Positions 2,844-28,506 of a DNA stretch of 64,000 nucleotides are shown here, one piece after another. The DNA comes from Candidatus Microgenomates bacterium (lineage in GTDB: Bacteria > Patescibacteriota > Microgenomatia > UBA8517): positions 19,646 to 83,645 of the forward strand of contig JBEKQV010000003.1 in assembly GCA_049519355.1 (NCBI GenBank). The letters are read 5' to 3'. Both the position numbers and the translations under genes were made by a program. The first letter of the stretch is position 1. Every line of letters starts with the position of its first letter. The notes under the pieces were generated by a model. That model ran no database searches and was not told the DNA's origin. It saw only the letters and a list, made by a program, of their open reading frames with translations.

Positions 2844-2888
2844 GTATAAGTTAAGCTGTTATTGAGTATAGGGAGCGGGAGATTAATG

Positions 2889-3515
2889 TCAATAGGTTTT
2901 GAATAGGAGTTTTAGTGTAGATTTTGTCATAAGTATCAGGGTGAACCACATTATAGATAAGTCAGTAACGGCAGAGCCGTTTTCCACATAATTGCGGTCA
3001 AGTTTCATCCATTCCTTGAAAGAAAGCCTGTGTGATCCGTTTACAACCCAATTACTGGTTATACCGGGATTGACAAGTTCTCTAACTTTCTCTCCACGGT
3101 TAAGCTTTCGTGCCTCACCAATGGGGAATGGTCTCGGCCCAACGATACTCATTTCGCCCTTGAGGACGTTTATTATTTGGGGTAGTTCGTCAAAACCGGT
3201 TCTTGAAAGGGCCTTCCCAAATTTTGTAAACCTGGGATCATCTTTAATTTTAAAAACAGGTCCGTCAGCTTCGTTGAGTTTTTTGAGCAGGGATTGTTTT
3301 TGGGAAGCACTAGGCGTCATCGTCCTGAATTTGAATATTTTAAATATTTTTCCGTTTTTGCCAACACGGTTTTGAAGAAAAAAAATATCACCTTTCTCAG
3401 TGAGTTTAATTGCCAGTGATGTTAGAGACGCAATAGGAAGTGTAACAATGAGGATAATTATAGAAACCGAAACATCCAAAAACTTTTTTGCAAATGAGGT
3501 GTGATAATCATTCAT
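2889..3515 (-). CDS. Small PglC/WbaP-type initiating sugar phosphotransferase (polyprenyl-phosphate hexose-1-phosphate transferase)
   Basis: Single N-terminal TM helix followed by the hallmark bacterial sugar transferase motifs FKFRTM, DELPQ and GEMSIVGPRP. Length ~208 aa matches PglC-like monotopic PGTs. Confidence 0.85.
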   Translation of the reverse strand: MNDYHTSFAKKFLDVSVSIIILIVTLPIASLTSLAIKLTEKGDIFFLQNRVGKNGKIFKIFKFRTMTPSASQKQSLLKKLNEADGPVFKIKDDPRFTKFGKALSRTGFDELPQIINVLKGEMSIVGPRPFPIGEARKLNRGEKVRELVNPGITSNWVVNGSHRLSFKEWMKLDRNYVENGSAVTDLSIMWFTLILMTKSTLKLLFKTY

Positions 3516-3520
3516 TTAGG

Positions 3521-4510
3521 TCAGAATAAGTTGGCCCAGATAATCATTGCCTCTTTTAGTTTCTTGAAATATATTCCTTTCGGAAATTTAATTTTCTGAG
3601 CCAGTTCAATATAACATGATTTCGGGTTGTTTCCTTTCAAATTTAATTCCTCGACAGATTTCCATAGAATCTCATTAATTTTCATTCCTTTCAGCTCTTT
3701 TGTACGGTTATGTCCCGTGATTGAGGCTTTTTTGTGATTAACGAAAGGGGATCCATTGACAACACCGGTTTTCAGGTGATCCATTATTTTTTTTGAAAAT
3801 ATTCCGGCCCAAATGTCGTCGTATCTGTCATAACTCCATAGTTTTCCTTTGGGATCAGTTCCCATCATTGGGAAAAACATAATCGGTGTCACCTCCCGTT
3901 TAAACGCAAGGTTCATACTACACATCGGATAAAAAAGTCCAAATGGAATAAATTGGGTTAATGGTGGATAATTCTTCTCGTTCAAAATTTTTGGAAGTTT
4001 GATTTCTGTTTTTGCATCCAGGTCAAGTGCTCCGGACCATAGGCCGTGACTTACACTTACGGAATGAACATCTCTATTTTTGTAGGGGAAACCACGGGTG
4101 AACATCCATTTGGGGTTAGGATATGTTGCTTGCCAACCCACCGGTATTTTCCTTCTTAGATTCTCCAAGTGTTTTTTGACAAAATCTTTTTCGGCAGGGT
4201 AGCAGTCATCGTCAATCGTAATGATTACGTCCGCTCCGGCATTATAGGCTTCCCAGAAGCCAAAGGAACGAATTCCTGCATTTTTTCGGGAAAATATCCA
4301 CGATTTTTTACCAAATTCTTCTTCAATATCTTTGTGGGAGAAGACGGTAACTGAGGAAAACTTTAAATCTGGAATTTTGGCTTTTTTCTCCCACCGGTCT
4401 TCAACAATAATCAGGTGACAACCTGAAAATTCATTCTTCCATCTATTTAGAAATGACAAATTTCTTATTGTAGGAATAACAACGAATACTTTTATTCTTT
4501 CATTCTTCAT
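3521..4510 (-). CDS. GT75 family protein (reversibly glycosylated polypeptide / UDP-arabinopyranose mutase-like)
   Basis: VVIPTIRNLSFLNRWKNEF...HLIIVEDR and IITIDDDCYPAEKD align closely with plant RGP1 (IVIPTIRNLDFLEMWRPFF...HLIIVQDGD and IFTIDDDCFVAKD). The ORF-track start at 4531 is TTG; I use the internal ATG at 4510 (MKNERIKVF), which removes the overlap with the next gene. Confidence 0.7.
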   Translation of the reverse strand: MKNERIKVFVVIPTIRNLSFLNRWKNEFSGCHLIIVEDRWEKKAKIPDLKFSSVTVFSHKDIEEEFGKKSWIFSRKNAGIRSFGFWEAYNAGADVIITIDDDCYPAEKDFVKKHLENLRRKIPVGWQATYPNPKWMFTRGFPYKNRDVHSVSVSHGLWSGALDLDAKTEIKLPKILNEKNYPPLTQFIPFGLFYPMCSMNLAFKREVTPIMFFPMMGTDPKGKLWSYDRYDDIWAGIFSKKIMDHLKTGVVNGSPFVNHKKASITGHNRTKELKGMKINEILWKSVEELNLKGNNPKSCYIELAQKIKFPKGIYFKKLKEAMIIWANLF

Positions 4511-4522
4511 GGTATATATTCT

Positions 4523-5344
4523 ATGCACCAAGTTGGTAAACTTGATATAACACTTGCATTAGGCGAATTTATCATGACACGAATCGAAACACAACAATTT
4601 TTTGAGCTTCTCTGGGGGATGACCGAAAGAGAACTTCGGGCAAGGTATAAATATACTGTTTTCGGATTTTTGTGGATTGTATTGAACCCTGCATTTCAAA
4701 TGTTAATAATTGGTTTCATCTTCAGGTTTTTTATGAAAGAGCCAGTTCAGAATTATTACTATTTTCTTTTTATTGGACTTTTGATTTGGAATTTTTTCTC
4801 TTTATCTTTATCGAAAGCAACTCCCTCAATAGTTTTTGAAAGGACGCTTATAAAGAAAGCGAAGTTCTCGCGTTCGATTATCCCCCTGGCAATTGTTTTT
4901 TCTAATTTTGTTCATTTAATGGTCGCGATGGTTCTTCTTACCGTTCCGGTACTTTTTCTTAACACAATGACCATTACGAGTATTTTCTATATTTTAATCG
5001 CATTTGTTCTACTTCTTGTATTTACGTCGGGTATAAGCCTTCTTTGCGCAGCTTTAGATGTCAGATTTCGTGATGTTAATTTTTTTGTACAGGCATTTAT
5101 AATTTTTTGGTTTTATGCAACGCCGATAATATATCCATTATCAATTGTCCCTTATCAGTATTATTGGCTTTGGCGTTTTAATCCGATGACTGAGATGCTT
5201 CAATTTCTTCAGCACGGTTTCTTGGGGATGCCGCTTCCCGGAACGGCGATGATTATTATAAATACTATGCTAATAATAACCGTGGCGGCTGCGGGGATAT
5301 GGGTTTTCGGTAAAGAAAGTAAAAATTTTGACGATTGGGTATAA
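4523..5344 (+). CDS. ABC-2 type polysaccharide exporter permease (Wzm/TagG/KpsM-like)
   Basis: Six predicted TM segments and a conserved N-terminal ELLWGMTERELRARYKYTVFGFLW motif typical of Wzm/TagG. Immediately upstream of an ABC ATPase. Confidence 0.8.
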   Translation: MHQVGKLDITLALGEFIMTRIETQQFFELLWGMTERELRARYKYTVFGFLWIVLNPAFQMLIIGFIFRFFMKEPVQNYYYFLFIGLLIWNFFSLSLSKATPSIVFERTLIKKAKFSRSIIPLAIVFSNFVHLMVAMVLLTVPVLFLNTMTITSIFYILIAFVLLLVFTSGISLLCAALDVRFRDVNFFVQAFIIFWFYATPIIYPLSIVPYQYYWLWRFNPMTEMLQFLQHGFLGMPLPGTAMIIINTMLIITVAAAGIWVFGKESKNFDDWV

Positions 5345-5349
5345 ATAAT

Positions 5350-6060
5350 ATGAAAATAGATAAAGATTACGCTATTGAACTTTACGGAATTTCAAAAAAA
5401 TATACTATTCATCACGAAAAACCAACTCTTGTCGAGAAGTTTTTTAAGGGACGGGATGAAAAATTTTTGGCGCTTAATAATATTAATTTAAAAATAAATA
5501 GAGGAGAAAGTGTCGGAATAATCGGGGATAATGGTTCCGGCAAGACCACACTTCTAAAAATAATAGCCGGAATTACGGCTCCATCATCCGGTATTATAAA
5601 AGCCGGTGGCAGGGTTGTATCGATAATAGATCTCAATGCCGGTTTTCATGATGATTTGAGTGGGTTTCAGAATATATATCTGAATGGGATGTTTCTTGGC
5701 ATGACAAAAAAAGAAATTGATAGAAAATTAAGGGACATTATTATTTTTGCAGGAATCAGACAATTTATTGACGCGCCTCTTTTTACCTATTCTCAGGGGA
5801 TGAAATTACGTCTCGGTTTTTCCGTGGCCATACATAGCAATCCTGATATTTTACTTCTCGATGAGAATTTTTCTGTAGGAGATGAAAAATTCAAAAAAAA
5901 ATGCAGAGATATTATTAAAAAATTTAGAAAACAAAAGATGACATTATTAATCGCAAGTCACTGGAAACAGTTTATAGACCAAAACTGTGAACGGATAATC
6001 ACTTTAAAAAACGGAAAAATAATAAAAGATATCCATCCCGGTTTAAAGACAAAATCATGA
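5350..6060 (+). CDS. ABC transporter ATP-binding protein (Wzt/TagH/KpsT-like), short form without C-terminal carbohydrate-binding domain
   Basis: Walker A GDNGSGKTTLLKI, signature motif and Walker B LLLDE. The ORF-track start at 5335 is TTG; the ATG at 5350 follows the Wzm stop. Confidence 0.85.
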   Translation: MKIDKDYAIELYGISKKYTIHHEKPTLVEKFFKGRDEKFLALNNINLKINRGESVGIIGDNGSGKTTLLKIIAGITAPSSGIIKAGGRVVSIIDLNAGFHDDLSGFQNIYLNGMFLGMTKKEIDRKLRDIIIFAGIRQFIDAPLFTYSQGMKLRLGFSVAIHSNPDILLLDENFSVGDEKFKKKCRDIIKKFRKQKMTLLIASHWKQFIDQNCERIITLKNGKIIKDIHPGLKTKS

Positions 6061-6767
6061 AGGAGACAACTTTAAAAAAATTTCATTTGAGAAAGGCTTA
6101 TTCTATTTATCGAAACATAAAATGGTCCTTCTTCGACCACAGTTTAGTTAGAAAAGACATTGTTTATAGATTGATTAATCATTACGGAGGCGATTCAGGA
6201 CATAAGATAGAAACCCCCAGCGGCAATTTAGGTTTCGGGTTTATACATTATTGCATAATAAGGAATATCAGGCCGGCAAAAGTTTTATGTATAGGTTCAA
6301 GAATGGGTTTTGTTCCCGCGATATGTGCCTTAGCTTGTAAAGACAATCGATACGGTGTGGTGGAATTTGTTGATGCAGGGTTAGATGAGAGTGATAAGAA
6401 AAGCTGGTCGGGTATAGGTTTTTGGAAAAAAACGGATTTAAAGAAGCACTTCAATGTATCTAAGCTTAATAACTGGATTAATACTTACATAATGACATCA
6501 CAGTCTTTTGCGGATGCATACCCTAAGTGGAAATATGATTATATTTACATAGACGGTGACCATTCTTATGGTGGAGTAAAATTGGATTTCAAATTGTTTT
6601 GGCCGCGGCTTAATAAAAACGGGTTCATGGTGTTTCATGATGCAACAGTTAAAAATTGGGGATCTTTAAAAGGATTCGGTGTCTGGAAATTCCTTAAAGA
6701 AAATAAAAATAGACACAAAATAATTTTTCCTCTCAATGAATCCGGTCTGGCAATATTGCAAAAGTAA
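6057..6767 (+). CDS. Class I SAM-dependent methyltransferase, TylF/MycF-like (family 3 sugar O-methyltransferase; Methyltransf_24)
   Basis: SAM motif I VLCIGSRMGF and the YIDGDHSY motif characteristic of the TylF/MycF/CmcI family. Start ATGA overlaps the Wzt stop. Confidence 0.55.
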   Translation: MKETTLKKFHLRKAYSIYRNIKWSFFDHSLVRKDIVYRLINHYGGDSGHKIETPSGNLGFGFIHYCIIRNIRPAKVLCIGSRMGFVPAICALACKDNRYGVVEFVDAGLDESDKKSWSGIGFWKKTDLKKHFNVSKLNNWINTYIMTSQSFADAYPKWKYDYIYIDGDHSYGGVKLDFKLFWPRLNKNGFMVFHDATVKNWGSLKGFGVWKFLKENKNRHKIIFPLNESGLAILQK

Positions 6768-6776
6768 TGAATTAAA

Positions 6777-8027
6777 ATGTTCGGAATTAAAACTTTCATT
6801 CAAAAAAGAATTATTTACCCTTCGTATCTTTTTCCGGAAAAAAACGGTAAATTTCCGTCGAAGCCGGTTTCCCAAATAAAAATAAATTCCAGACTTTTTG
6901 CCTTAGAAAACAAACTAAAAGAACAAAGGAGTCTTTCGGGGTATGGCAATCTAATAACTTATCCGCGTCGAGATGCAATAAATGTTTGGAAAAGATTGAT
7001 TAACCTTAACCCCAACAATCTTGGTAATTGGTCTATTCGGGAAGTTGTTCCCGGACACGACGCGGCGGAAATTGAACGGGATTTAATTTTTAAAATGGTT
7101 GATCTTTATCATGGTGATAAGAAGAACCTTGAAGGATATGTAACCAGTGGAGGAACTGAAGCTAATATTTTTTCGGCTTGGGTCGGCTGCAAAAGTTTGC
7201 AAAAACGTGGTATCCAAAGACAACAAATGTGTTTAATAAAAACCAGCCTTACACATTATTCAGTCGGCAAAGCAGCAGATGTTGTAGGAGTACCAACCTA
7301 CGTAGTTGGTTTAGACGAGAAGGAGTGGTCCATGGACGTTAACGGTTTTGTTAAAAAGATCGAAAAGTTATCAAAAAGCGGTATGAAGGGTTTTCTCATT
7401 CCTTTGACACTGGGTTATACGGTTACGGGAACGGCGGACCCCTATGAAAGAATATGTATAGAGATCAAGAAACTTAAAGAACAATATGGAGTGGAGTTTT
7501 TTGTTTGGATGGATGCAGCCTTAAACGGGCTTATAGAACCATTTTTAAATAAAAAATTCAGCCCCTTTGAATTATCGGAAATTCAAATTTTTTTGACCGA
7601 TTTTCACAAATTTGGTTTTGTCCCGATTCCGTCCGGGGTAGTTTTATACCGGAGGAGACTACGAAATTTAATTGAAAAGCAAATTGACTATTTGGATGAA
7701 AAAGATAATACCTTGTTAGGATCGCGAAGCGGTATAGCTCCGGTTGCGTGTTGGACGATTATAAATACATTAGGCAAGAGTGGATTTAAGAAAATAATAA
7801 AACGTAATCTAAACAAGAAACAACAATTTATGAGTATATGCAAGAATAGACACCTTTCCATTATCAATAGTGAACGCAGTCTAAACTGTGGAATTATCTT
7901 AAAAGATATGGCTTTATTTGATAAGAAATTTTCAAATAAATACGGCCTTAACTTTAGGAAGATGAAGTTAATGTTTATATCAAAAAATTCTGAATATAAT
8001 ATTGCAAAAGCATTTTTTCTGAAGTAG
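6777..8027 (+). CDS. Group II PLP-dependent decarboxylase (MfnA / glutamate-decarboxylase-like)
   Basis: TSGGTEANIF matches the MfnA/GAD N-terminal motif. DFHKFGFVPIPSGVVLY matches the PLP-lysine region SGHKFGLAPLGCGWV of group II decarboxylases. Confidence 0.7.
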   Translation: MFGIKTFIQKRIIYPSYLFPEKNGKFPSKPVSQIKINSRLFALENKLKEQRSLSGYGNLITYPRRDAINVWKRLINLNPNNLGNWSIREVVPGHDAAEIERDLIFKMVDLYHGDKKNLEGYVTSGGTEANIFSAWVGCKSLQKRGIQRQQMCLIKTSLTHYSVGKAADVVGVPTYVVGLDEKEWSMDVNGFVKKIEKLSKSGMKGFLIPLTLGYTVTGTADPYERICIEIKKLKEQYGVEFFVWMDAALNGLIEPFLNKKFSPFELSEIQIFLTDFHKFGFVPIPSGVVLYRRRLRNLIEKQIDYLDEKDNTLLGSRSGIAPVACWTIINTLGKSGFKKIIKRNLNKKQQFMSICKNRHLSIINSERSLNCGIILKDMALFDKKFSNKYGLNFRKMKLMFISKNSEYNIAKAFFLK

Positions 8028-8059
8028 CTTAGCCATATTTCAAAAAGGCAATTATTATT

Positions 8060-8971
8060 ATGCTTATAACTTTCACAACGACTCAACCTAATATTCCCCT
8101 CAAAATCAAAGATTTAGAAAGAATCGGCAAGTTGGAAGTACTTAAAGGAGTTTATAATAAAAGTGCCAAAACAAAAGATATCCTTTCGAGAACAGAGATT
8201 TTACTTGCCAACCCTAAGTATTTTGGAGTTATTGACAGGAAGGTTATTAGTTTATTTAAAAATTTAAAATATCTTTTTTTAATGTCCTCGGGGTTTGACT
8301 GGGTGGATATCGATTATGCCAAATCCCGAAATATTATAGTTGGGGGAGCTAGGGGGACAACTTCTATAAGTGTTGCCGAACATGCTTGGGCTCTCGCTCT
8401 TACGTTGGCAAAATCTCTCCAAAATGTAACAACCAATTCCGCCGGAGTTATTAATACGCAGATTCATGGAAAAACAGTGGGGATATTTGGTTACGGATAC
8501 GTTGGAAAGGCAATAGCAAATATTGCACAAGGCTTCGGTGCCGAAGTTTGTTATACCTCAAGCCACAGATTAAAAGATTTGAGAAATAGACGATTTTTAA
8601 ATAAAGATGAACTATTAAGGAAATCCGACATAATATTTCTTTGTTTGCCATTAACAAAAGATACTAGAAATTATTTAAGTTCGGGTGAAATAGAATTATT
8701 AAAAAAGAATGCAATATTGATTAACACGGCAAGAGAAGATCTGGTAGAAAACAAACCGCTTTTTAAGGCATTGAAAACAGGTAGACTTTTTGGTTATGGG
8801 ATTGATACGGATAAACGAAATTCAACTTTCCTCAAAAAAAATAGGCAACTGCGCATTGTATCAACATTCCACGCGGCGTATCGGACCGCAGAAGCGCTTG
8901 AAGCAATATATTCCGATACTGCAAAAGATGTTGAAGCTTTTATAAAAGGGAAGCCGCTAAGTATTTTATAA
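8060..8971 (+). CDS. D-isomer-specific 2-hydroxyacid dehydrogenase (glycerate/phosphoglycerate dehydrogenase-like, no ACT domain)
   Basis: NAD-binding GKTVGIFGYGYVGKAIA...GAEV, catalytic Arg in ILINTARED and His in STFHAAYRT. Confidence 0.75.
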   Translation: MLITFTTTQPNIPLKIKDLERIGKLEVLKGVYNKSAKTKDILSRTEILLANPKYFGVIDRKVISLFKNLKYLFLMSSGFDWVDIDYAKSRNIIVGGARGTTSISVAEHAWALALTLAKSLQNVTTNSAGVINTQIHGKTVGIFGYGYVGKAIANIAQGFGAEVCYTSSHRLKDLRNRRFLNKDELLRKSDIIFLCLPLTKDTRNYLSSGEIELLKKNAILINTAREDLVENKPLFKALKTGRLFGYGIDTDKRNSTFLKKNRQLRIVSTFHAAYRTAEALEAIYSDTAKDVEAFIKGKPLSIL

Positions 8972-9683
8972 ATCTGGATCTCAGTAAATTTTCAAATCTC
9001 TTCAGATCGTGTATAAGAAGATTTATATTATTGTAGTTGAAATCACCAACATTATTTTTGCCCCAGTTATTTATAAAAATTGTTTTAAAACCGAGTTTAC
9101 CGGCAGGAACTATGTCCTGTTTTTCGGAGTCGCCGACATAAATTACATGGTCAGGAAGTATCCGGCCAAGGGATTTTAAAAGTAAATTAAAAGATTTTTT
9201 TGAGGGTTTAAGCTCGTCGAGGTCATTGGTGGTAATTATTTTGACGAAAACTTCCGACGGATTTTTTACTCCCAACTTATGAAGAGAGTTGAAAGTTTGT
9301 TGGATATCGGAATTTGTGAATAGAAAATTTTCCTTTGAACTTATTTTGAAATAGTTGGCCAATTTTAAGTTTTGACGAACGTATTTATCCTTTACGATTC
9401 CTTTTTCGATAGTAAACATAAGTTTTTTTGTATTTAAATTGCCGGTTTCCCGGATAATATCAATCCAATCCACCCCTTTTCTTTCGAGTTCAATAAAATT
9501 ATTTTTATTATTTTTGCTTTGCCTGACATAATACTGAATATATTTTTTACGAAGATGATTAATAAGCGAGGGATTAAAATACAAAGTACCGTCCAAATCC
9601 CAAACAATTATTTTTGCGTGCGAATAATCCTTCAGCAGCAAAAGCAAAGTTTTGTATCTTTTTAATTTTTTTGATAAAGTCAT
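8940..9683 (-). CDS. HAD-superfamily hydrolase (phosphatase)
   Basis: Motif I IIVWDLDGTL (DxDGT) and motif IV VIYVGDSEKQDIVPAGKLG. It is the lone minus-strand gene in a plus-strand run and overlaps the 3' end of the dehydrogenase gene by 32 bp. Confidence 0.65.
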   Translation of the reverse strand: MTLSKKLKRYKTLLLLLKDYSHAKIIVWDLDGTLYFNPSLINHLRKKYIQYYVRQSKNNKNNFIELERKGVDWIDIIRETGNLNTKKLMFTIEKGIVKDKYVRQNLKLANYFKISSKENFLFTNSDIQQTFNSLHKLGVKNPSEVFVKIITTNDLDELKPSKKSFNLLLKSLGRILPDHVIYVGDSEKQDIVPAGKLGFKTIFINNWGKNNVGDFNYNNINLLIHDLKRFENLLRSRFIKYLAASLL

Positions 9684-9802
9684 TTTTGCAAATCTGCCTA
9701 ATAATATTTGCTTCGCGGGAAATAAGCAAGAAAATGATTAATATAGAGATATAATGAGGTGGAAAATTTGCTCTCTCGGCGAGCATGCTAAATTATACAT
9801 AA

Positions 9803-10786
9803 ATGTCAGTGACTATAAAGCAAAAATTTAAAAAAATACTTGCCAGGCACTACGAAGATTTATCTGCAATAAAAAGCATTGAGACCTTTCTAAAGAAAAA
9901 AAGAGGCTATGTTATTCGTATGCCCAAGCCGGGATCAGACATAATACATTTGGTTTCAGGGGGAATGGATTCAATAACCACATGGGCGATTCTTATGGAA
10001 AAATATAAACTAAAGGTTCACCCCGTGGCTATAGAAACAGGCCAAGGTAAACACAAATCCGAACTAAGATCTCTTTCGTTTTATTCAAAAATGTTTAAGA
10101 AAAGATACCCCGATTTATACGTTGAGCCCTTTAAAATTACGTACCCCTCATCTCCTCCCGAGATAAAACAGATGCTAACGGTTGATTTAGAGAAAACCGT
10201 ACACCCGGATGTAATTAAAAAGTATTTTAATGCCAACAATAATACCGTTATATTAAAACGAAAATTTTTATATCCGGCATTTGTTGCCTTTCCAGCTGCA
10301 CGGGTTGCACTTTTCTTTGAAATGCAAAGGAATAAAAAAATCAGGGCTATTTCAACGGGAATTCTTCCGTCCGATGGTTATTACAATGAAAGCCAAACTT
10401 TGACAGCCTTACGTGGAGCCATGTTTGCTCTTTGTACATTTACTAATGATTACAATTGGCAGATATTCAGTTTGTGTTTTGAGAAAGAGATACACAGTCT
10501 TTATACAAAAGCCGATCTGGTTAAGTGGGCTTACGCAAACAATCTTCCGCTAGAAAACACATATAGCTGTCTGATGAACTTCGATAAAAACTGTGGGATT
10601 TGCGTCAATTGTCAGGTAAGAAAAAAAGCTTTTAAAAAAGCTGGCGTTAAGGATATCACTGAGTACGAAAGTGAAAGCATCTCCGTCCATAAGTTTATGA
10701 CACAAAAATTGGCAAAAACGCATAATCTGGTAAAATATAAACTTCTTCATAAAAAAAAGATAATTATTAAAGATTATACTCAATAA
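9803..10786 (+). CDS. QueC-like PP-loop ATP pyrophosphatase (ExsB/QueC/WbuX family; candidate sugar amidotransferase/amidoligase)
   Basis: PP-loop LVSGGMDS plus a C-terminal Zn-ribbon-like CLMNFDKNCGICVNCQVR, as in QueC. At 327 aa it is ~100 aa longer than QueC, with N- and C-terminal extensions. It sits in a glycan locus, not a queuosine locus. Confidence 0.6.
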   Translation: MSVTIKQKFKKILARHYEDLSAIKSIETFLKKKRGYVIRMPKPGSDIIHLVSGGMDSITTWAILMEKYKLKVHPVAIETGQGKHKSELRSLSFYSKMFKKRYPDLYVEPFKITYPSSPPEIKQMLTVDLEKTVHPDVIKKYFNANNNTVILKRKFLYPAFVAFPAARVALFFEMQRNKKIRAISTGILPSDGYYNESQTLTALRGAMFALCTFTNDYNWQIFSLCFEKEIHSLYTKADLVKWAYANNLPLENTYSCLMNFDKNCGICVNCQVRKKAFKKAGVKDITEYESESISVHKFMTQKLAKTHNLVKYKLLHKKKIIIKDYTQ

Positions 10787-10932
10787 AATATTGCGGCATT
10801 TTATGAAAGCGTACAGTTTACAATATGAATAAGAACTTAGGATATTTTACTGCTCTAGCTTTTTTTGACATAAACGGAAAAATTACGGCACGAGGGCTTG
10901 CATTTCAGAAGTTATTAGTTTATCCGTAAGTT

Positions 10933-11700
10933 ATGTCAAATTATTTTTTAAACATATTTGAAACCAGATTTAAAAAGTTATATGGCAATGGAATTTTCAA
11001 TTTAAACGACGATATATTGTCAAATGCTGAAGTATTGGATGCTATCGAAAAAATGCCTGATGACGGCACCAAGGAGATTGCTAAATTTGTTACGACCAGG
11101 TTTGGTTTAAACAAAAAAATAAAGAAAATAGTTATCTTGGGTTCCGGTAGCGGAAAATTAGGAACCCGACTGGCGGATTACTTTAAAAATTCAATAATTG
11201 TAGATATCGACAAAAGCAGTCCCGTTATAAAGAGATTAAAAAATATTTTTAATAGGGACAAATTAAGAATGCCAAAACTTGGTGACGCACGTAACATACC
11301 GCTTGAAAAGGGTAGCGTTGATTTAATAGTTGCCTATAGCACCCTGAGGTATATAAATGATAGACGCAAAGTAATAGAAAGTATCAATAAGATTTTAAAA
11401 TCTGGTGGCTATGCCGTAATTGTAGAGGCAAGAGCAATAGATGTGGTGGAGGATATTGAATCCACCCTGAAAAATAAAAGAATTGCTTTTACCCGTAATA
11501 CGGAAAATAATATTCTTTTTTCGAGAACAAGTTTTTTTTATTACCTGGTTCTGGAATCTTCTAAAAACAAGATTTTGAAAAACAGGATTGAAAAAGTTGA
11601 AAACAAGAACAATTCGAGTTTTTTGGAGGCGGCTTTGAAATGTGCAGGCAAGTATAAAGGCTCGCTTTATTATGTAAGCTGGCAAAAGAAAAATGGTTAA
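10933..11700 (+). CDS. Class I SAM-dependent methyltransferase (Methyltransf_11/25-like)
   Basis: Motif I VILGSGSGKLG, post-I acidic DID and motif II/III VDLIVAYSTLRYI...LKSGGYAVIVE. Confidence 0.7.
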   Translation: MSNYFLNIFETRFKKLYGNGIFNLNDDILSNAEVLDAIEKMPDDGTKEIAKFVTTRFGLNKKIKKIVILGSGSGKLGTRLADYFKNSIIVDIDKSSPVIKRLKNIFNRDKLRMPKLGDARNIPLEKGSVDLIVAYSTLRYINDRRKVIESINKILKSGGYAVIVEARAIDVVEDIESTLKNKRIAFTRNTENNILFSRTSFFYYLVLESSKNKILKNRIEKVENKNNSSFLEAALKCAGKYKGSLYYVSWQKKNG

Positions 11701-12799
11701 AGACTTTCACTTAAATTTTGTTGATATCGACAATAGGGAAGTAGAATCCGTTAGACGGGTGTTATTATCAAGGCACCTTGAACGGGGTTCTGTTACAAAA
11801 TTTGTTGAAAAAAAGTTAAAACATTTAATTAACGTTAAGAACGCAGTTTTAGTTAGTAATGCAACAGGAGCACTAATCGCTGGCCTAAAGGCATCGGGAA
11901 TAGGATTTGGAGATGAAGTTCTAACCACACCTTTTACATTCGCGGCCACAGTCAATGCGATTTCTTTAGTAGGAGCAGTTCCTGTTTATGTTGATATTGA
12001 CCCGGAGACTTTTAATCTGGACCCCGAAAAGATTGAAGAAAAAATATCCAGAAGGACGAAAGCAATATTGACTGTTGATCTTTTCGGACTTCCTTGCGAT
12101 TACGAAAAGATCGGCGTTATTGCCAAGAAACACAATTTGGTGGTTATTGCCGATTCGAGCCAAGCCTTCGGTTCTTTATTTAACAATAAGTACTTTTTTC
12201 CTAATGTAAGTTTGCAGGTTTTTTCATTCTTTATCTCGAAAGTTATAACTGCAGGGGAGGGAGGTTTGGCGATAACAAATAACAAGGAAATTGCCGATAA
12301 TTTCAATATATTTATCAACCATGGCCAGAAAAGAGGCAGTAAATATAAGTTCATTGCCTGTGGATGGAATTTCCGGCCAACCGATATCGAAGCGGCTATC
12401 ATTAAGAGCCAGTTGGGAAAATTAAACAGGATAATTTCAAAGAGGAAAAGGAACGCTAGATATCTTACGCAAAAACTTAAAAATACAAAAGGCCTTATTC
12501 TTCCCTCTGTTGGGATAAACCGGGAACATTCATTTTCCAGATATACGGTTAGGATTGGTAAAGATTTTAGGTCAACACGCGAACAAGTTATTAATTATTT
12601 GAGGAAAAATGGAGTTGAAACTGATGTTATCTATCCCAAACCTTTATATTTTTATAAACATTTATCTTTCGGGTTTGGCAAAGGAAGTTGTTTAGAATCC
12701 GAACGAGCTTCCCGTGAAGTTTTGACAATTCCTGTTCATCAAAATCTTACGAATAAGGATTTGGGCCACATTTGTAAATGCATTAAAGATAAAAGCTAG
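11693..12799 (+). CDS. DegT/DnrJ/EryC1/StrS-family PLP-dependent sugar aminotransferase
   Basis: N-terminal VLVSNATGALIAGLKA...GDEVLTTPFTFAATVNAI and the PLP-lysine region FSFFISKVITAGEGG. Start overlaps the preceding methyltransferase stop by 8 bp. Confidence 0.85.
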   Translation: MVKDFHLNFVDIDNREVESVRRVLLSRHLERGSVTKFVEKKLKHLINVKNAVLVSNATGALIAGLKASGIGFGDEVLTTPFTFAATVNAISLVGAVPVYVDIDPETFNLDPEKIEEKISRRTKAILTVDLFGLPCDYEKIGVIAKKHNLVVIADSSQAFGSLFNNKYFFPNVSLQVFSFFISKVITAGEGGLAITNNKEIADNFNIFINHGQKRGSKYKFIACGWNFRPTDIEAAIIKSQLGKLNRIISKRKRNARYLTQKLKNTKGLILPSVGINREHSFSRYTVRIGKDFRSTREQVINYLRKNGVETDVIYPKPLYFYKHLSFGFGKGSCLESERASREVLTIPVHQNLTNKDLGHICKCIKDKS

Positions 12800-12900
12800 T
12801 GAAATCGGGCGCCGGCTCCATTTTTGATACATCCGTCCGTGTTTGCCCGTAGATTGCATGCGAAATTGATTATATTTATAATGACGGATACCCGCGCGTG

Positions 12901-14004
12901 ATGTACAACAAAAAGACATTAATTCAGAAGTGCCCCATATTTTACAATTCGTTGTCTGTAACTAAATTTGACGGGTATTCATTTATATTTATTCACCACC
13001 TTACTCAAAGTAACGCTCCGTTTTTAGCGGCTTGGATAAAAAAGGTAAAAACAATTGGAGTTATTTCAATACCTTATTCGGAAGTAATGATGGTTAAAAA
13101 GAAGTTGGGCAGATTGGTTAAAGTATTTTCGCCAAAAAGCGTTGATCAAATTCCCAAATTGTTGTTGGAGCTTAGCCAAAGAAGTCCGAAGGAAAAAATT
13201 GTCCTTGTTGAAGTTGGCGGATATTCATCACTAGTTTCAGATAAGTTAAAAAATGTCGTTTTTGGAATTGAGGACACCTCACAAGGGCACTGGCTGCAAG
13301 TTAAAAACCACAATCTTAGGTATCCTGTTGTTAGTATTGCAGATACAAAAGCCAAAAGAATAGAAGATCGGTACGTAGGAGAGTCGATAGTAAGAACTAT
13401 CGATCACGTTTTAAAAAAGCATAATTCTGTTTTTGGAAACAAAGAGAAAATTTATTCGGTTTTGTCTTACGGAAGAATAGGCGAATCCGTTTGTCTTGCT
13501 CTGAGGGACAGAGGAGTGCGCCCTTACGTCTTTGACACAAATATTTTCAAAAGGGCCCTGGCTATCGCTGACGGATATTTGTCTTCGGAGCGAAGCAGGC
13601 TTCTTAGGATATCCGATGTAATAATAGGTTGTAGCGGTAGGCGAAGCATAACAAAAAACGATATTGGTCTACTTAAACCCGGAAGTTGTCTTTTTAGCGG
13701 TTCCTCCAAGCAAGTCGAATTTGAAGAGATTTTAAATTATATGGACCGCGACTCGGGCGATAACCAACTGAAAGTATTAGATTTCGGAAATAAAAAAAGT
13801 TGGATTGGATATTTTGGGCAACCGATCAACTTTTTAGATACCACAGATTCAGAGATGTTTGATGTACCGTTCGCCTTGCAGGTCGAGTGCTTCAACTACT
13901 GGAAATCAAGTAAGTTAGCGAATAAAGTTTACACTCTCCCGATGGTATATCAGCGAAAGATTCTGGATCTTTACGTTAAATTTAATAATCATAAACAGCT
14001 TTAG
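12901..14004 (+). CDS. Hypothetical NAD-binding Rossmann protein, distantly adenosylhomocysteinase-NAD-domain-like
   Basis: YGRIGESVCLALRDRGVRPYVFDTN...ALAIADGY...DVIIGCSGRRSIT resembles the SAHH NAD-binding domain pattern (GYGxVGKGxA...D...ALQA..G...DI.VT.TG). The first ORF-track codon is GTG; the ATG is at 12901. Confidence 0.3.
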   Translation: MYNKKTLIQKCPIFYNSLSVTKFDGYSFIFIHHLTQSNAPFLAAWIKKVKTIGVISIPYSEVMMVKKKLGRLVKVFSPKSVDQIPKLLLELSQRSPKEKIVLVEVGGYSSLVSDKLKNVVFGIEDTSQGHWLQVKNHNLRYPVVSIADTKAKRIEDRYVGESIVRTIDHVLKKHNSVFGNKEKIYSVLSYGRIGESVCLALRDRGVRPYVFDTNIFKRALAIADGYLSSERSRLLRISDVIIGCSGRRSITKNDIGLLKPGSCLFSGSSKQVEFEEILNYMDRDSGDNQLKVLDFGNKKSWIGYFGQPINFLDTTDSEMFDVPFALQVECFNYWKSSKLANKVYTLPMVYQRKILDLYVKFNNHKQL

Positions 14005-14006
14005 TT

Positions 14007-15395
14007 ATGTTTAAGAGTCAAAGAGTATTCAACAAAAAGATACAAATTTTTATATATATTGTCTATTTTACCTTTGCTTTTTTTGGTTTGAGGGAGATAT
14101 CAAATAAAACTGCCTATCAGCCAAATGAATATGATTATGTTGCTAGGGGAGCATACTTGGATTTATTTTCTCAGTACAACAACAAAAATTATCTATGGGA
14201 ATTGTACGATTCTTATGTTCAAGAAAAATTGCCTAGTTACATATACCAAATTTCATTAAAGGTCCAAAACGTACGCCCGATATTGGAAATTGACAACCTT
14301 AGCATAGCTCCGTCTTGGTGGTACGGAACTGGCAGCTGCCGCCCCCCTAATTATTCAGATATAAATTGTCAAACGATAACCTCAGGTAACTGGACGTGGT
14401 CTATAGACGGAGTTACGCCAAAAAAGGTCAGTCAAGAGATAAATGCCGGACTATTACCGTCACAGGCACCAACGGATTTGGTTTCGATTAATGCCGCGCG
14501 CAACGTTTCTTTAATATTTTCATTAGGATCTTTAATACTAATTTGCCTAATTGTGAACTATTTTTGGGGTTTCATTTCAAGTCTAATTGCGTCCAGTATT
14601 TTAATTTTTTCTCCTCTTTTTGAAACGTCGACGCTTAGGGCTCTTGGGGATACATTTCTTTTATTTTTTCTACTTTTATCCTTTTTTCTGACGGTGATTT
14701 GGTATAACAGGACAAAAAATCTGCGAATATCAAAAGCGGTGATGTTAAGTATTCCGATCGGTGTCAGCTTCGGTCTTGCTATGGCATCAAAATTAAATGG
14801 ATTTGTCAGTCTGATTTTCTTTTTTATATTATCGGTAATTTTATTTTACAAAATTCCAAAAATCAGGCTAAATTTATTTCTCTCTTTCATAACTGTTTCT
14901 GCGGTAATGCTTTCTGTTTTTGTAATTCTTAATCCCTTTGTTTGGAAAAATCCTATCGAAGGGACAGCTTTTATGGTTCAACACAGGTGGAATGAAACTT
15001 TATATTATCAGGTCCAGCCGGGTTTTAAACCGATTCTAACATTTGGAGAGCGTTTATATTTTCTATTGGCACGAACAATACTGCCGGGAGGAGACTATGT
15101 AATTCGAAATCATGGAACCCCTCTTGGTTTAATTTTGTTTTTGTTTGGCGGTTGGGGATTGTATTCCGATCTCAAATCCAAAAAAAATAAACTTAAAATT
15201 TTCGCAAAACTTATTCTGATTTATGGTCTGATGATGTGGATTGTAATGGGTATTTATTTGAAACTGGATTGGGATAGGTATTACTTACCATTTGTGCCCT
15301 TTGTTGTTATTGTTAGCTCCAGGGGGATTGTTAAAATTGTGGAATTTTTTAGGTGGTTTAAAAATAAATATCTGCAACGCGTCTTCCTAGAGTAA
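14007..15395 (+). CDS. Polytopic membrane protein, putative GT-C fold glycosyltransferase (ArnT/PMT_2-like)
   Basis: About 10 predicted TM helices. First extracytoplasmic loop has an NEYDYVARGAYLD motif resembling the DE..Y/ARE motif of ArnT/PMT GT-C enzymes. Confidence 0.45.
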   Translation: MFKSQRVFNKKIQIFIYIVYFTFAFFGLREISNKTAYQPNEYDYVARGAYLDLFSQYNNKNYLWELYDSYVQEKLPSYIYQISLKVQNVRPILEIDNLSIAPSWWYGTGSCRPPNYSDINCQTITSGNWTWSIDGVTPKKVSQEINAGLLPSQAPTDLVSINAARNVSLIFSLGSLILICLIVNYFWGFISSLIASSILIFSPLFETSTLRALGDTFLLFFLLLSFFLTVIWYNRTKNLRISKAVMLSIPIGVSFGLAMASKLNGFVSLIFFFILSVILFYKIPKIRLNLFLSFITVSAVMLSVFVILNPFVWKNPIEGTAFMVQHRWNETLYYQVQPGFKPILTFGERLYFLLARTILPGGDYVIRNHGTPLGLILFLFGGWGLYSDLKSKKNKLKIFAKLILIYGLMMWIVMGIYLKLDWDRYYLPFVPFVVIVSSRGIVKIVEFFRWFKNKYLQRVFLE

Positions 15396-16626: not shown

Positions 16627-16630
16627 TTTT

Positions 16631-18263: not shown

Positions 18264-18264
18264 T

Positions 18265-27676: not shown

Positions 27677-28506
27677 AACACATAACTATCTTTAAGAGAA
27701 AAGTGACGTATTTTGATTTTATTTTGGGAGGCGTATTTATAATAGTAATGCTTGGGGTTTTCCTGTTTTTATATAGAAAAAACGAATACGTAAATATCCG
27801 TGTAAAAGTAACGGATCAGGATGTTCTTTACGCATCTACCGATCCAAAAAGCTGGTATGCTAACCGATTTGAAGTGGGGGATATTGAATTGGACGAACTT
27901 GGGAGGACGATAAGCCAGATAACCGGCGTTGAAACTTTTAATATGAGTCCGGATACAAAAGCTGTTTATCTGGACATTAAGATTAAAGCGGTTTATGACA
28001 GACGTACAAAATTGTATTCGGCGCGGGGAATCAATCTAACTTTTGGAAACACGATCAGATTTAATTTTTCTAACGCCTCTTTTTATGCATTGATTACAGA
28101 ATCGCCTGGCACATTAAATCAAAAAGATCTAACGGTTGAGGAAAAGGAAATAACCGTTTTGGAACGGGGGCCTGCTTTAAACTCTTCAGCCGATTCGATT
28201 GAACCCGAAGTTTTGGAAAAGATTAAAAAGGGAGATGAGATTACCGATTCAAACGGAGATACCTTGGCGGAGGTCGAAAACGTGGTCCTTAGGCCCGGCC
28301 AACGGGTTGTACAAAACGCTGCTGGAAACCTTCTTCTCAGATATGACCCTTACTACAAGGATGCAATAATTACACTTAAAATACGGGTTGAAAAATATAA
28401 AGGAGATGAATTTGTTTTTGATAATGTTCCTTTAAAGCTCGGTTCCTATTTACCGTTAAATTTCACTTATGAAAGTATCTGGCCTGTTATAACGGATATT
28501 AAATAA
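27673..28506 (+). CDS. Hypothetical membrane-anchored protein
   Basis: N-terminal TM helix, no recognisable catalytic motifs. Embedded in the GT locus and start-stop coupled to the preceding gene. Confidence 0.3.
   Translation: MKHITIFKRKVTYFDFILGGVFIIVMLGVFLFLYRKNEYVNIRVKVTDQDVLYASTDPKSWYANRFEVGDIELDELGRTISQITGVETFNMSPDTKAVYLDIKIKAVYDRRTKLYSARGINLTFGNTIRFNFSNASFYALITESPGTLNQKDLTVEEKEITVLERGPALNSSADSIEPEVLEKIKKGDEITDSNGDTLAEVENVVLRPGQRVVQNAAGNLLLRYDPYYKDAIITLKIRVEKYKGDEFVFDNVPLKLGSYLPLNFTYESIWPVITDIK

Follow-up and report, generated by a model that had tools for sequence, protein, structure and literature searches.

The capsule of Campylobacter jejuni carries ethanolamine and serinol amides on GlcA, which are made by a set of enzymes comprising a PLP decarboxylase, a PLP transaminase, an ATP-dependent ligase and an HAD phosphatase (PMC11800397). 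QueC and Cap9 activate the carboxylate of a small molecule, with the amine supplied by a partner. The second half-reaction of QueC is the activation of an amide carbonyl, and Cap9 and QatC modify protein N-termini. We analysed a 64,000-nucleotide stretch of DNA (the window) from an uncultured, ultra-small, Microgenomates-like bacterium of the CPR/Patescibacteria. A sequence-only reading had set a run of genes in this window beside Cj1435-1438 of C. jejuni. The chemistry that it cited for those proteins is as described (PMC11800397), and it was right that the families in the window are different ones. The window cassette would thus match the C. jejuni set in function without being homologous to it. 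Our tentative reading is that the cassette forms the decoration part of an ABC-transporter-dependent surface glycopolymer locus, in which a QueC-like ligase would link an amine derived from an amino acid through an amide bond.

Pfam and NCBIfam profile searches recovered all seven of the gene families claimed for this run at their coordinates. The cassette contains the following genes.

6057..6767, plus strand: Methyltransf_24 class I SAM-dependent methyltransferase (Pfam PF13578, 57 bits)
6777..8027, plus strand: group II PLP decarboxylase, Pyridoxal_deC (Pfam PF00282)
8060..8971, plus strand: D-isomer-specific 2-hydroxyacid dehydrogenase (Pfam PF02826, 2-Hacid_dh_C, 118 bits, and PF00389, 2-Hacid_dh, 64 bits)
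8940..9683, minus strand: HAD-IA phosphatase (Pfam HAD_2, 44.5 bits)
9803..10786, plus strand: QueC-family PP-loop ATP pyrophosphatase of the type-1 clade, 327 aa (motifs SGGMDS and C(x)7CxxCxxC)
10933..11700, plus strand: Methyltransf_11 class I SAM-dependent methyltransferase (Pfam PF08241, 53 bits)
11693..12799, plus strand: DegT/DnrJ/EryC1-family PLP aminotransferase (Pfam PF01041, 322 bits)
12898..14004, plus strand: divergent S-adenosylhomocysteine-hydrolase-fold (SAHH-fold) NAD protein (AF2 model, Foldseek)

The last of these is an eighth open reading frame within 6057-14004 that had previously gone unnamed.

The cassette lies within a genuine glycan locus, whose other genes include those listed here together with GT4 enzymes and a carbamoyltransferase.

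2889..3515, minus strand: Bac_transf small polyprenyl-phosphate sugar-phosphate transferase (Pfam PF02397, 187 bits)
3521..4531, minus strand: RGP-like protein of the reversibly glycosylated polypeptide / UDP-arabinopyranose mutase family (Pfam PF03214, 177 bits)
4523..5344, plus strand: ABC-2 type permease, Wzm/TagG-like (Pfam PF01061)
5335..6060, plus strand: ABC transporter ATPase, Wzt/TagH-like (Pfam ABC_tran)
14007..15395, plus strand: PMT-like GT-C membrane glycosyltransferase (Pfam PF02366, 34 bits)
16631..17788, minus strand: GT1-family glycosyltransferase (Pfam Glycos_transf_1)
26153..28506, plus strand: Wzy_C (O-antigen-ligase-like) gene and DUF4330 gene (Pfam)

The plus-strand operon begins with the ABC-2 permease gene and the run ends with the PMT-like gene. 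This setting is constant, with ABC-2, ABC, GT1, Wzy_C and DUF4330 genes recurring in the window and its relatives. Of 17 informative loci, 14 have the ABC-2 permease alongside the QueC-like gene. The ABC ATPase of the window (241 aa, lacking a C-terminal extra domain) has as its top NCBIfam matches TagH and Wzt, exporters of teichoic acid and galactan, every one of them below cutoff. Homologues of the GT1 gene adjoin the Methyltransf_24/decarboxylase cassette in L006, L007, L013, L017, L045, L047 and L048, and the downstream Wzy_C/DUF4330 pair is kept in L006, L007/L008, L010, L011 and L045. Bac_transf, presumably the enzyme that initiates the glycopolymer, has homologues in L005 and L045. RGP-like homologues occur in L006, L045 and L048 (47-61% identity), and in relatives this gene repeatedly adjoins the ABC-2 genes. 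Neither the window nor any related locus yielded a 4,6-dehydratase or another enzyme that would form a keto-sugar. The same was true of UDP-glucose dehydrogenase and any other uronic-acid-forming enzyme, so that the sugar carboxylate previously put forward as ligation partner is unsupported; DegT may instead make an amino sugar whose amine is then N-acylated.

A comparison of synteny across about 17 CPR loci revealed two conserved units, one consisting of Methyltransf_24, the decarboxylase and the QueC-like gene, and the other of the QueC-like gene with Methyltransf_11 and DegT, which a 2-hydroxyacid dehydrogenase usually accompanies. All nine type-1 loci have Methyltransf_11 directly 3' of the QueC-like gene, together with DegT, and in type-2 loci the decarboxylase and QueC-like genes are tightly coupled and DegT is missing. 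A PLP decarboxylase was found within 10 kb of the QueC-like gene in 11 of 14 informative loci, a count that leaves out three loci sampled via the decarboxylase. When decarboxylase homologues were sampled blind, by the length of their contigs alone (59, 58 and 44% identity), all three had Methyltransf_24 and QueC-family genes adjacent, some of the neighbours having overlapping stop and start codons. In nearly all related loci Methyltransf_24 directly precedes the decarboxylase, and the two genes are neighbours in the window, L005, L006, L007, L010-L012, L014, L045 and L047-L049. The closest relative, L045, is collinear with the window across 14 genes. Since independent CPR contigs contain this set of genes side by side again, their grouping goes far beyond chance, and the proposal that they form a functional module is borne out. 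Two type-1 loci, L001 and L003, have no decarboxylase within 10 kb, which indicates that the window's type-1 QueC-like enzyme is not strictly dependent on one. As for the trio of decarboxylase, QueC-like protein and HAD phosphatase whose co-occurrence had been proposed as a check, the first two do travel together but the phosphatase is confined to the window and L045; the conserved trio is instead Methyltransf_24, decarboxylase and QueC-like protein. Overall, the earlier interpretation is partly supported.

The first methyltransferase had been labelled TylF-like, but its family is PF13578 and not PF05711. It carries a DGDHSY / HD metal-type motif, and no sequence relative of it was found in the PDB. 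The decarboxylase is closest among NCBIfam models to histidine decarboxylase (158 bits, cutoff 305), followed by MfnA (128 bits, cutoff 299). In the PDB it matched the histidine decarboxylase 7erv at 95 bits and plant Ala/Ser decarboxylases at 73-82 bits. Its TSGGTEAN, THYS, DAAL and DFHK motifs are all present, and residues G125, E128, N130, H160, S162, D246, D275, H277 and K278 are invariant among 120 homologues, such that the catalytic residues, whose loss would have spoken against the idea, are intact. In four loci (L005 and L010-L012) this group II enzyme is swapped for a non-homologous fold-III decarboxylase, which comes closest to the models for LysA, for FslC (an N-citrylornithine decarboxylase) and for the exosortase-A EPS-associated decarboxylase TIGR03099. 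A second non-homologous displacement affects the 2-hydroxyacid dehydrogenase, which is present in seven of nine type-1 loci and whose slot in L011 is taken by an Ldh_2 enzyme (276 bits), bringing loci with a 2-oxo/2-hydroxy-acid dehydrogenase of either fold to eight of nine. All NCBIfam matches of the window's dehydrogenase fall below cutoff and its PDB matches are scattered over D-LDH, glyoxylate reductase, glycerate DH and PGDH, so by similarity its substrate type may be lactate, glycerate, glyoxylate or 3-phosphoglycerate. The HAD-IA phosphatase gene is convergent with the dehydrogenase gene, and the two share 32 nt at the 3' end of the latter. Its translation shows the DxDGT and GDSxxxD motifs, and its sole tblastn match is in L045 (49% identity), placing it outside the conserved set. 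The Metallophos protein carried by other relatives begins with a membrane or signal segment and is no equivalent of the cytoplasmic HAD phosphatase.

Downstream of the QueC-like gene, Methyltransf_11 runs into the start of DegT, which retains the PLP lysine motif SKVITAGEGG. DegT scored 258 bits against the NCBIfam model for PseC (cutoff 423), and perosamine synthetase was its best PDB match (202 bits), with WbpE and QdtB also matching. The eighth protein had no Pfam matches and reached 48.7 bits against the NCBIfam SAHH model, where the cutoff is 275. Its AF2 model nevertheless adopts the full S-adenosylhomocysteine hydrolase fold (pLDDT 89.5; Foldseek TM 0.81 to SAHH 3x2f), with Ser replacing the His of GHFxxEID. 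The gene occupies the same place in L045, and a homologue (P0025) lies amid nucleotide-metabolism genes. The protein probably clears SAH for both methyltransferases, or else is a housekeeping bystander.

The QueC-like protein, presumably an ATP-dependent ligase that forms amides (or amidines), falls in a CPR clade, previously undescribed, that comprises about 229 clusters. A WbpG/WbuX sugar amidotransferase identity was rejected for it. If it were a genuine 7-cyano-7-deazaguanine synthase (QueC) or a defence enzyme of the Cap9/QatC type, the remaining genes would be unrelated neighbours. Its predicted fold is indeed nearest to QueC and Cap9, and it weakly matches PF06508 and the PADLOC 'QueC' (Cap9) model at 49 bits each. 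However, it scored 38.8 against the QueC equivalog TIGR00364 (cutoff 150.3) and 34.6 against QatC (cutoff 280), and the QueC substrate motifs YxQxHxxE, VPxRN and YPDC are not conserved. Neither the window nor any of the about 17 loci contains queD, queE, TGT, CD-NTase or qatABD, and the neighbours persist between clades although identity is down to only 30-40%, a pattern that chance proximity would not be expected to give. We consider this explanation extremely improbable; the protein failed every test for bona fide QueC (score, substrate motifs, queD/queE), as the sequence-only reading had supposed. Formation of an acetamidino group, as by WbpG, WbuX or PseA, is very unlikely. Here the N-acetyl carbonyl of a DegT-made amino sugar would be adenylated and its oxygen replaced by ammonia or an alkylamine, Methyltransf_11 then yielding an N-methylacetamidino group. 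Such activation of an amide carbonyl corresponds to the second half-reaction of QueC, the Pfam family of the QueC-like protein includes WbpG-type sugar amidotransferases as remote relatives, a methyltransferase and DegT follow directly downstream, and in L001 a GNAT acetyltransferase gene lies directly 5' of the QueC-like gene.

In a sub-model of our preferred explanation acid and amine trade places and an amino sugar would be N-acylated; as an account of its own we regard this as unlikely. DegT would act on an intermediate linked to a nucleotide or lipid to make the amino sugar, the dehydrogenase would provide a 2-hydroxy acid (such as D-lactate or D-glycerate), the QueC-like enzyme would adenylate this small acid and transfer it to the sugar amine, and Methyltransf_11 would O- or N-methylate the product. 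The best matches of DegT, all nucleotide-sugar aminotransferases, argue for it, as do the constant association of the type-1 QueC-like gene with Methyltransf_11 and DegT, the dehydrogenases of two folds and the carboxylate activation by QueC and Cap9. It needs no uronic-acid enzyme, in keeping with the absence of such enzymes, and L001 and L003 work without a decarboxylase. On the other hand, a dehydratase or oxidase that would give DegT its keto-sugar is absent from every locus, and the decarboxylase and Methyltransf_24 would have to make a second, separate decoration, leaving the decarboxylase/QueC-like coupling in type-2 loci to another reaction. It is quite unlikely that the cassette is RiPP-like or protein-conjugating, with the QueC-like enzyme joining a unit derived from an amino acid to a protein or ribosomal peptide, the ABC-2 transporter exporting the peptide or glycopeptide, and the glycosyltransferases glycosylating it or being mere neighbours. 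Known QueC-like ligases do act on proteins, and 39 of 160 family representatives, in sister clades and not in the window, are fused to a C-terminal PqqD/RRE-like domain. Stand-alone PqqD genes adjoin the QueC-like genes in L005, L007/L008 and L014. The partner ABC ATPases of these same loci, and one member of the QueC-like family (P0172), bear a signal-peptidase-like domain of Sec11/S26 type (conserved motifs SM(E/L)P, VHR and TKGD) analogous to the leader-peptidase domains of bacteriocin exporters. In L005 and L007 the PqqD gene is preceded by short ORFs that have strong ribosome-binding sites, and L012, L013, L016 and L048 contain genes of the radical SAM/SPASM or B12-radical SAM type. The fusions point to putative peptide substrates in the sister clades, an alternative that had not been considered before. 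Together with the lack of a uronic-acid or keto-sugar enzyme they make a peptide, instead of a sugar polymer, a possible target of decoration. The window, however, has no PqqD gene, S26-like domain or conserved small ORF, the candidate short ORFs are mutually dissimilar, and Pfam gives the ABC peptidase domain weak support, with a match of 17 bits in L007 and no match in either L005 or L014. Moreover, the ABC ATPase is most like the TagH/Wzt glycan exporters, and glycosyltransferases and Wzy_C lie beside the cassette in almost all loci.

In our preferred explanation, amide decoration of a surface glycopolymer, 2-hydroxyacid dehydrogenase and DegT would interconvert the 2-hydroxy, 2-oxo and 2-amino forms of a small acid, and the Ldh_2 enzyme in the dehydrogenase slot of L011 supports small-acid chemistry of this kind; alternatively, DegT might supply an amino-sugar acceptor. 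The PLP decarboxylase would strip the alpha-carboxylate from an amino-acid unit to leave an amine. It would act either before ligation, giving a free amine, or on the ligated product in the way that FslC decarboxylates N-citrylornithine. The QueC-like ATPase, repurposed, would use adenylation to prepare a carboxylate (or an amide carbonyl) for attack by the amine, giving an amide, or less likely an amidine, that bears a side group derived from an amino acid. In the window's lineage the HAD enzyme would remove a phosphate, Methyltransf_24 and Methyltransf_11 would methylate the product, and the SAHH-like enzyme would clear SAH. The finished polymer would then be exported through the Wzm/Wzt-like transporter and ligated by the Wzy_C protein.

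An earlier sequence-only reading had named seven enzyme families in the interval 6057-14004, and all of them were recovered there by Pfam and NCBIfam searches, with a single relabelling: Pfam assigns the methyltransferase at 6057-6767, previously called TylF-like, to Methyltransf_24 (PF13578) and not to TylF proper. The interval also contains an eighth gene that the reading had passed over.

Genes of the interval (coordinates in the window, strand, assignment)
6057-6767, plus strand: Methyltransf_24 (PF13578) methyltransferase
6777-8027, plus strand: group II PLP decarboxylase
8060-8971, plus strand: D-2-hydroxyacid dehydrogenase
8940-9683, minus strand: HAD phosphatase, convergent, with a 32-nt overlap with the 3' end of the dehydrogenase gene
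9803-10786, plus strand: QueC-family PP-loop ATPase
10933-11700, plus strand: Methyltransf_11 methyltransferase
11693-12799, plus strand: DegT aminotransferase
12898-14004, plus strand: SAHH-fold ORF, the eighth gene, no Pfam match

The DegT translation carries SKVITAGEGG, and the HAD translation carries DxDGT and GDSxxxD. The surroundings of the cassette are a surface-glycan locus. On the 5' side stand Bac_transf and an RGP-like gene, both on the minus strand, and then, directly adjoining and in the same operon, ABC-2 genes of Wzm/Wzt-like type; a PMT-like GT-C lies directly 3', and GT1 and GT4 enzymes, a carbamoyltransferase, a GDSL protein, Wzy_C and DUF4330 follow further 3'. The remaining window genes are of the housekeeping kind (gyrA, dnaB, metK, ychF, integrase, proteases). 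The window corresponds to part of a 115-kb JGI metagenome contig (3300017940, Ga0187853_10000071), window positions being contig positions minus 2979. G+C content across the window is 34-47%, tRNA and Rfam scans of the window returned no match, and a promoter/terminator scan of positions 2500-18500 gave counts near the shuffled expectation. Homologues are assigned to Candidatus Shapirobacteria, Roizmanbacteria, Parcubacteria, Saccharibacteria or 'Patescibacteria group'; the source is a CPR bacterium and probably belongs to the Microgenomates.

Several features of this setting were recorded in their own right. The RGP-like gene (3521-4531, minus strand) belongs to the plant-type UDP-arabinopyranose mutase/reversibly glycosylated polypeptide family, stands beside ABC-2 genes also in the related loci L006, L045 and L048, and hints that the polymer contains a furanose, perhaps arabinofuranose. 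A 1340-aa fusion of a GT4 glycosyltransferase, a PQQ-like beta-propeller and DUF5060 is encoded at 20952-24974 (minus strand), with a 928-aa propeller/DUF5060 homologue at the equivalent position in L045. Two short hydrophobic ORFs (50 and 61 aa; 17929-18263, plus strand) lie 5' of the NodU/CmcH-type carbamoyltransferase (18151-19950, plus strand); since the 61-aa ORF overlaps the annotated TTG start of the carbamoyltransferase, the true start may be further downstream. In L012 a carbamoyltransferase 50% identical to that of the window adjoins the cassette. The stretch 40017-42049 holds a tyrosine-recombinase gene of the phage-integrase family and, convergent with it and overlapping it by 4 nt, the SAM synthetase gene metK, so that SAM supply is encoded about 26 kb from the methyltransferases.

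The PP-loop enzyme of the window is a new variant of the QueC family. With QueC it has in common the Rossmann-type PP-loop fold, the SGGxDS motif (SGGMDS at residues 52-57, invariant in sets of 14 and of 19 family sequences) and, presumably, ATP-dependent activation of a carboxylate or amide. Four cysteines stand at the C-terminal position of the zinc site, C256-x7-C264-xx-C267-xx-C270, with the spacing C(x)7CxxCxxC, where the motif of canonical QueC is C(x)8CxxCxxC. In length the window protein exceeds canonical QueC by about 100 residues; both of its termini are extended, and residues 105-160 form an insertion. The motifs YxQxHxxE, VPxRN and YPDC were defined by mutagenesis as substrate/catalytic motifs of QueC in a 2026 survey of PF06508 (PMC13329287), and all three are missing here. 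The region of the first reads T79-G-Q-(x)5-E87, in which the Tyr is lost and E87 alone is conserved across the family, and LPSDG stands in the region corresponding to the other two. The TIGR00364 match scored 38.8 bits against an equivalog cutoff of 150.3 and spans residues 48-151 only (NCBIfam), and neither queD nor queE was found in the 64-kb window or in about 17 related loci. Canonical QueC was therefore rejected on HMM score, substrate motifs and genomic context.

The WbpG/WbuX/PseA/LfnA enzymes (TIGR03573; PDB 8wex) are, like the window enzyme, PP-loop ATPases of surface-glycan loci, and they convert an acyl carbonyl to a nitrogen-substituted group. They are distant PF06508 members (cluster 5 of PMC13329287), and the WbpG/WbuX subgroup is marked by an SGGxDSxY P-loop and by CxxC(x)6CxC and YDC in an order reversed relative to QueC (PMC13329287). 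The window protein instead has the P-loop SGGMDSIT and a C-terminal Cys motif in canonical order, TIGR03573 gave no NCBIfam match at E<=0.001, and 8wex is not its closest structural neighbour. On score, motifs and structure we abandoned WbuX/WbpG-type membership for this protein, and we keep acetamidino chemistry as a minor rival. The Cap9-like minimal QueC fold and the Cap9 zinc-motif spacing are both present in the window protein. Its QatC score, however, was 34.6 against 280, the 7-deazaguanine-binding motifs are not conserved, and the setting is glycan biosynthesis, not a defence island. Since the PADLOC and NCBIfam matches were weak and confined to this one protein, and since no Cap9/QatC partner (CD-NTase, Cap10/TGT, QatA/QatB/QatD) was found in the window or the related loci, a Qat or type IV CBASS defence system was rejected.

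A word-indexed search returned only 14 close relatives of the QueC-like protein, and an exhaustive profile search returned 229 clusters at E<=1e-30 and 1288 at E<=1e-10 (clusters at 50% identity), which indicates a sizeable, undescribed family. Its branches are a type-1 clade, which includes the window protein, and a number of type-2 clades at 30-40% identity to type-1. The clade of the window enzyme is left untreated by the 2026 survey (PMC13329287).

Conservation of the cassette was followed across 17 informative loci on related CPR contigs (numbered with L) and short fragments. The closest relative, L045, shares a run of 14 collinear genes with the window (protein identity 38-68%), and both the HAD gene, again on the minus strand, and the SAHH-like gene are among them. 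A PLP decarboxylase lies at most 10 kb from the QueC-like gene in 11 of 14 loci, a count that leaves out three loci reached via the decarboxylase. In the reverse test, three decarboxylase homologues (59, 58 and 44% identity), picked solely for lying on long contigs, all had Methyltransf_24 immediately upstream and a QueC-family gene adjacent, and their loci also carry ABC-2 and ABC genes and a GT1. The order type-1 QueC-like, Methyltransf_11, DegT, with the genes overlapping, is kept in all nine type-1 loci and is followed by a 2-Hacid_dh gene in seven; in L001 and L003 this three-gene unit occurs without any decarboxylase nearby. The HAD phosphatase was found in the window and L045 only. The genes do form a conserved module. 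Its recurrent units are Methyltransf_24/decarboxylase/QueC-like and type-1 QueC-like/Methyltransf_11/DegT, and not the trio of decarboxylase, QueC-like enzyme and HAD phosphatase that had been proposed.

In most type-1 loci, the window not among them, the QueC-like/Methyltransf_11/DegT/dehydrogenase operon is closed by a Metallophos phosphoesterase with an N-terminal hydrophobic (signal/anchor) segment (L001 13955-14773; L003 12909-13850; L009 5667-6518; also L010-L012). These proteins are not obvious equivalents of the HAD phosphatase. Two further loci have unusual neighbours. In L016, from an uncultured Saccharibacteria (6896-12192), PNP/MTAP-like phosphorylase, APRT-like and HD-domain genes stand between the decarboxylase and QueC-like genes and a B12-binding radical SAM enzyme follows the pair; no glycosyltransferases are nearby, and the setting is nucleoside-flavoured. 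In L047 (11360-13810) a TauA/SsuA/OpuAC-type substrate-binding protein and an ABC importer, which may bring in the cassette substrate, lie directly beside the Methyltransf_24/decarboxylase/QueC-like cassette.

The catalytic motifs of the decarboxylase (TSGGTEAN, THYS, DAAL, DFHK) are intact. The HK lysine (K278), pyridine-N Asp (D246), ring-stacking His (H160) and GGTE(A/G/S)N loop (G125-N130) of group II enzymes are all present, and G125, E128, N130, H160, S162, D246, D275, H277 and K278 are invariant in 120 homologues. More than 120 homologues share at least 39% identity with it. All scores lay below the NCBIfam equivalog cutoffs, at 158 against 305 for HDC and 128 against 299 for MfnA. At the position after 'YP', taken from the plant Ser/Ala decarboxylases as specificity-determining (PMC11407765), the window has Arg; the position is variable across the 120 homologues and mostly His. 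In four related loci a fold-III (Orn/DAP/Arg-type) PLP decarboxylase replaces the group II enzyme beside Methyltransf_24.

Fold-III decarboxylases in the slot of the group II enzyme
L005, 13710-14861, minus strand
L010, 14733-15887, minus strand
L011, about 14930-15997, minus strand
L012, 16246-17406, minus strand

That an unrelated decarboxylase takes over this slot argues strongly for decarboxylation as such being needed. The best named models for the fold-III enzymes are LysA, followed by the N-citrylornithine decarboxylase FslC and the exosortase-A EPS-associated decarboxylase TIGR03099, all below cutoff. In the FslA/FslC rhizoferrin and TIGR03099 systems an amino acid is ligated via its side chain and the free alpha-amino-acid end is then decarboxylated, a logic that the cassette may share; their ligases, however, are NIS synthetases or acyl-CoA-ligase types and not PP-loop enzymes, and the window decarboxylase is of group II.

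A second displacement affects the dehydrogenase. Matches of the window enzyme in NCBIfam and the PDB divide evenly among D-LDH, glyoxylate reductase, glycerate DH and PGDH. In L011, the 2-Hacid_dh slot between DegT and Metallophos is occupied by an Ldh_2-family (PF02615) dehydrogenase (12914-13918, plus strand; 276 bits), and this exchange suggests that the substrate is a small 2-oxo/2-hydroxy acid and not a sugar. Methyltransf_24 has no sequence relative in the PDB. MccD/MccE provide a model for a 3-amino-3-carboxypropyl transferase that works with a decarboxylase; we did not adopt this role for Methyltransf_24 because its metal-type DGDHSY/HD motif looks like that of an ordinary O-methyltransferase.

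The AlphaFold (AF2) model of the SAHH-like ORF (pLDDT 89.5) predicts a complete two-domain SAHH fold with its NAD domain, and Foldseek matched it to 3x2f and 7r39 (TM 0.81, E 2e-19). Identity to known SAHHs is about 20%, and the family model gave 48.7 bits against a cutoff of 275. The catalytic His of GHFxxEID is replaced by Ser, within an invariant GSSKQVEF, so that the full SAHH catalytic set is lacking. A homologue in L046 (P0025, 46% identical) is encoded among dCMP deaminase, ThyX, thymidylate kinase, SHMT and FolD genes. From these nucleotide/folate neighbours, the ORF may not belong to the module at all but be the housekeeping hydrolase of SAH (or S-inosylhomocysteine) in CPR bacteria.

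One of the closest known counterparts is the glucuronamide module of the C. jejuni HS:2 capsule, in which Cj1435 is a HAD phosphatase, Cj1436 a phosphoserine decarboxylase and Cj1437 a DHAP transaminase, and in which the C-terminal domain of Cj1438 is an ATP-dependent amide ligase that gives ADP (PMC11800397). Both sets lie in an ABC-transporter-dependent surface-polysaccharide locus, and both combine a PLP decarboxylase, a PLP aminotransferase and an ATP-dependent ligase, joined in the window and L045, though in no other locus, by a HAD phosphatase. The expected product, by analogy, would likewise be a small amine in amide linkage. The parts differ: the ligase here is a PP-loop QueC-family protein, non-homologous to Cj1438C, which would give AMP and PPi, and the decarboxylase is group II (His/Ser-type) or fold-III. 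Beyond the C. jejuni parts there are the two methyltransferases, the 2-hydroxyacid dehydrogenase and the SAHH-like gene, and the HAD is not conserved. Among the window ORFs there is no ATP-grasp or Cj1438-like protein, and the PP-loop enzyme is the sole ATP-dependent candidate. The parallel to Cj1435-1438 that had been drawn is real in function, by a non-orthologous route; it is analogy, not homology.

QueC adenylates a carboxylate, converts it with ammonia to an amide and activates this amide in a second round, and in Cap9 and QatC the same chemistry joins 7-carboxy-7-deazaguanine to a protein N-terminus. Judged by fold and motifs, the window enzyme would adenylate a carboxylate (or an amide carbonyl) and take an amine. 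Its partners, the decarboxylase and, in the window clade, the aminotransferase with the 2-oxoacid dehydrogenase, lead us to infer that an amide-linked, amino-acid-derived amine is installed; the two methyltransferases would decorate the ligation product, and SAH would be cleared by the SAHH-like enzyme. Of the chemistries considered, amide formation has the best support. The sequence-only reading is borne out in part: the module is conserved, but the composition of its core is not the one proposed. We give slightly less than an even chance to the reading that the QueC-like cassette decorates the glycan. Two versions of the amide chemistry remain. The decarboxylase may yield an amine, possibly from serine/phosphoserine made by the dehydrogenase, DegT and HAD, that is joined to a glycan carboxylate; uronic-acid-forming enzymes, UDP-glucose 6-dehydrogenase (UDPG_MGDP_dh, the Cj1441 equivalent) among them, are however absent from the window and the examined related loci. 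Alternatively the DegT product may be an amino sugar that is N-acylated with a small acid, but keto-sugar-forming enzymes are absent from the same loci.

Sister clades of the QueC-like family carry parts that suggest a different acceptor. A C-terminal PqqD/RRE-like domain is present in 39 of 160 family representatives (P0211-P0300 being part of the set examined), and in three loci (L005, L007/L008 and L014) a separate PqqD gene abuts the QueC-like gene. A signal-peptidase-like domain is fused to the QueC-like protein P0172, and the same domain occurs on Wzt-like ABC ATPases.

PqqD genes abutting QueC-like genes, and Wzt-like ABC ATPases with the signal-peptidase-like domain
L005, 9705-10007: PqqD gene
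L007, 5307-5570: PqqD gene
L014, 2713-2985: PqqD gene
L007, 5584-6591, minus strand: Wzt-like ABC ATPase
L005, 12680-13717, plus strand: Wzt-like ABC ATPase
L014, 1656-2702, plus strand: Wzt-like ABC ATPase

This domain of about 100 aa is C-terminal and resembles Sec11/archaeal-type signal peptidase I, with conserved SM(E/L)P, VHR and TKGD and weak Pfam support. In the PqqD-bearing loci a predicted cytoplasmic peptidase-like domain sits on a glycan-type exporter. Radical SAM/SPASM or B12-radical SAM genes occur in several related loci. Since PqqD, the peptidase-like domain and radical SAM enzymes are peptide-handling parts, a ribosomal peptide may be the substrate in some clades. Neither tblastn nor a custom PqqD HMM detected a PqqD gene or precursor peptide in the window, which also lacks the signal-peptidase-like domain and every other peptide-handling part of this kind. 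A 34-aa ORF at 10825-10929, in the gap between the QueC-like and Methyltransf_11 genes, was rejected as a precursor: it has no counterpart in L045, where the gap is 5 nt. A literature search for QueC with PqqD/RRE returned no paper linking the two. We regard it as improbable that the CPR clade consists of new RRE-guided conjugating ligases, which would attach a decarboxylase/methyltransferase-built amine to a ribosomal peptide, protein or peptide-primed glycan, the product being processed by the Sec11-like domain on the ABC-2 exporter, and with the window as a derived version in which peptide-recognition parts were swapped for the aminotransferase/methyltransferase pair. If true, this would be a previously unseen peptide/glycopeptide maturation system in ultra-small bacteria.

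Since most CPR/Patescibacteria live as episymbionts, attachment to the host is presumably mediated by their surface chemistry, and to our knowledge almost nothing has been established about their envelope polymers. The cassette is a recurrent, lineage-typical, putative surface-decoration unit, and the displacements of its decarboxylase and dehydrogenase yield testable predictions as to which of its reactions are indispensable. Peptide-directed conjugation is a possibility raised by the PqqD and peptidase fusions of the sister clades. If the amide chemistry is true, the PP-loop ligase would be a third route to amide-linked amines on glycans, beside the Cj1438-type ligase and AsnB-type amidotransferases, and the repertoire of the QueC scaffold would reach beyond deazapurine chemistry.
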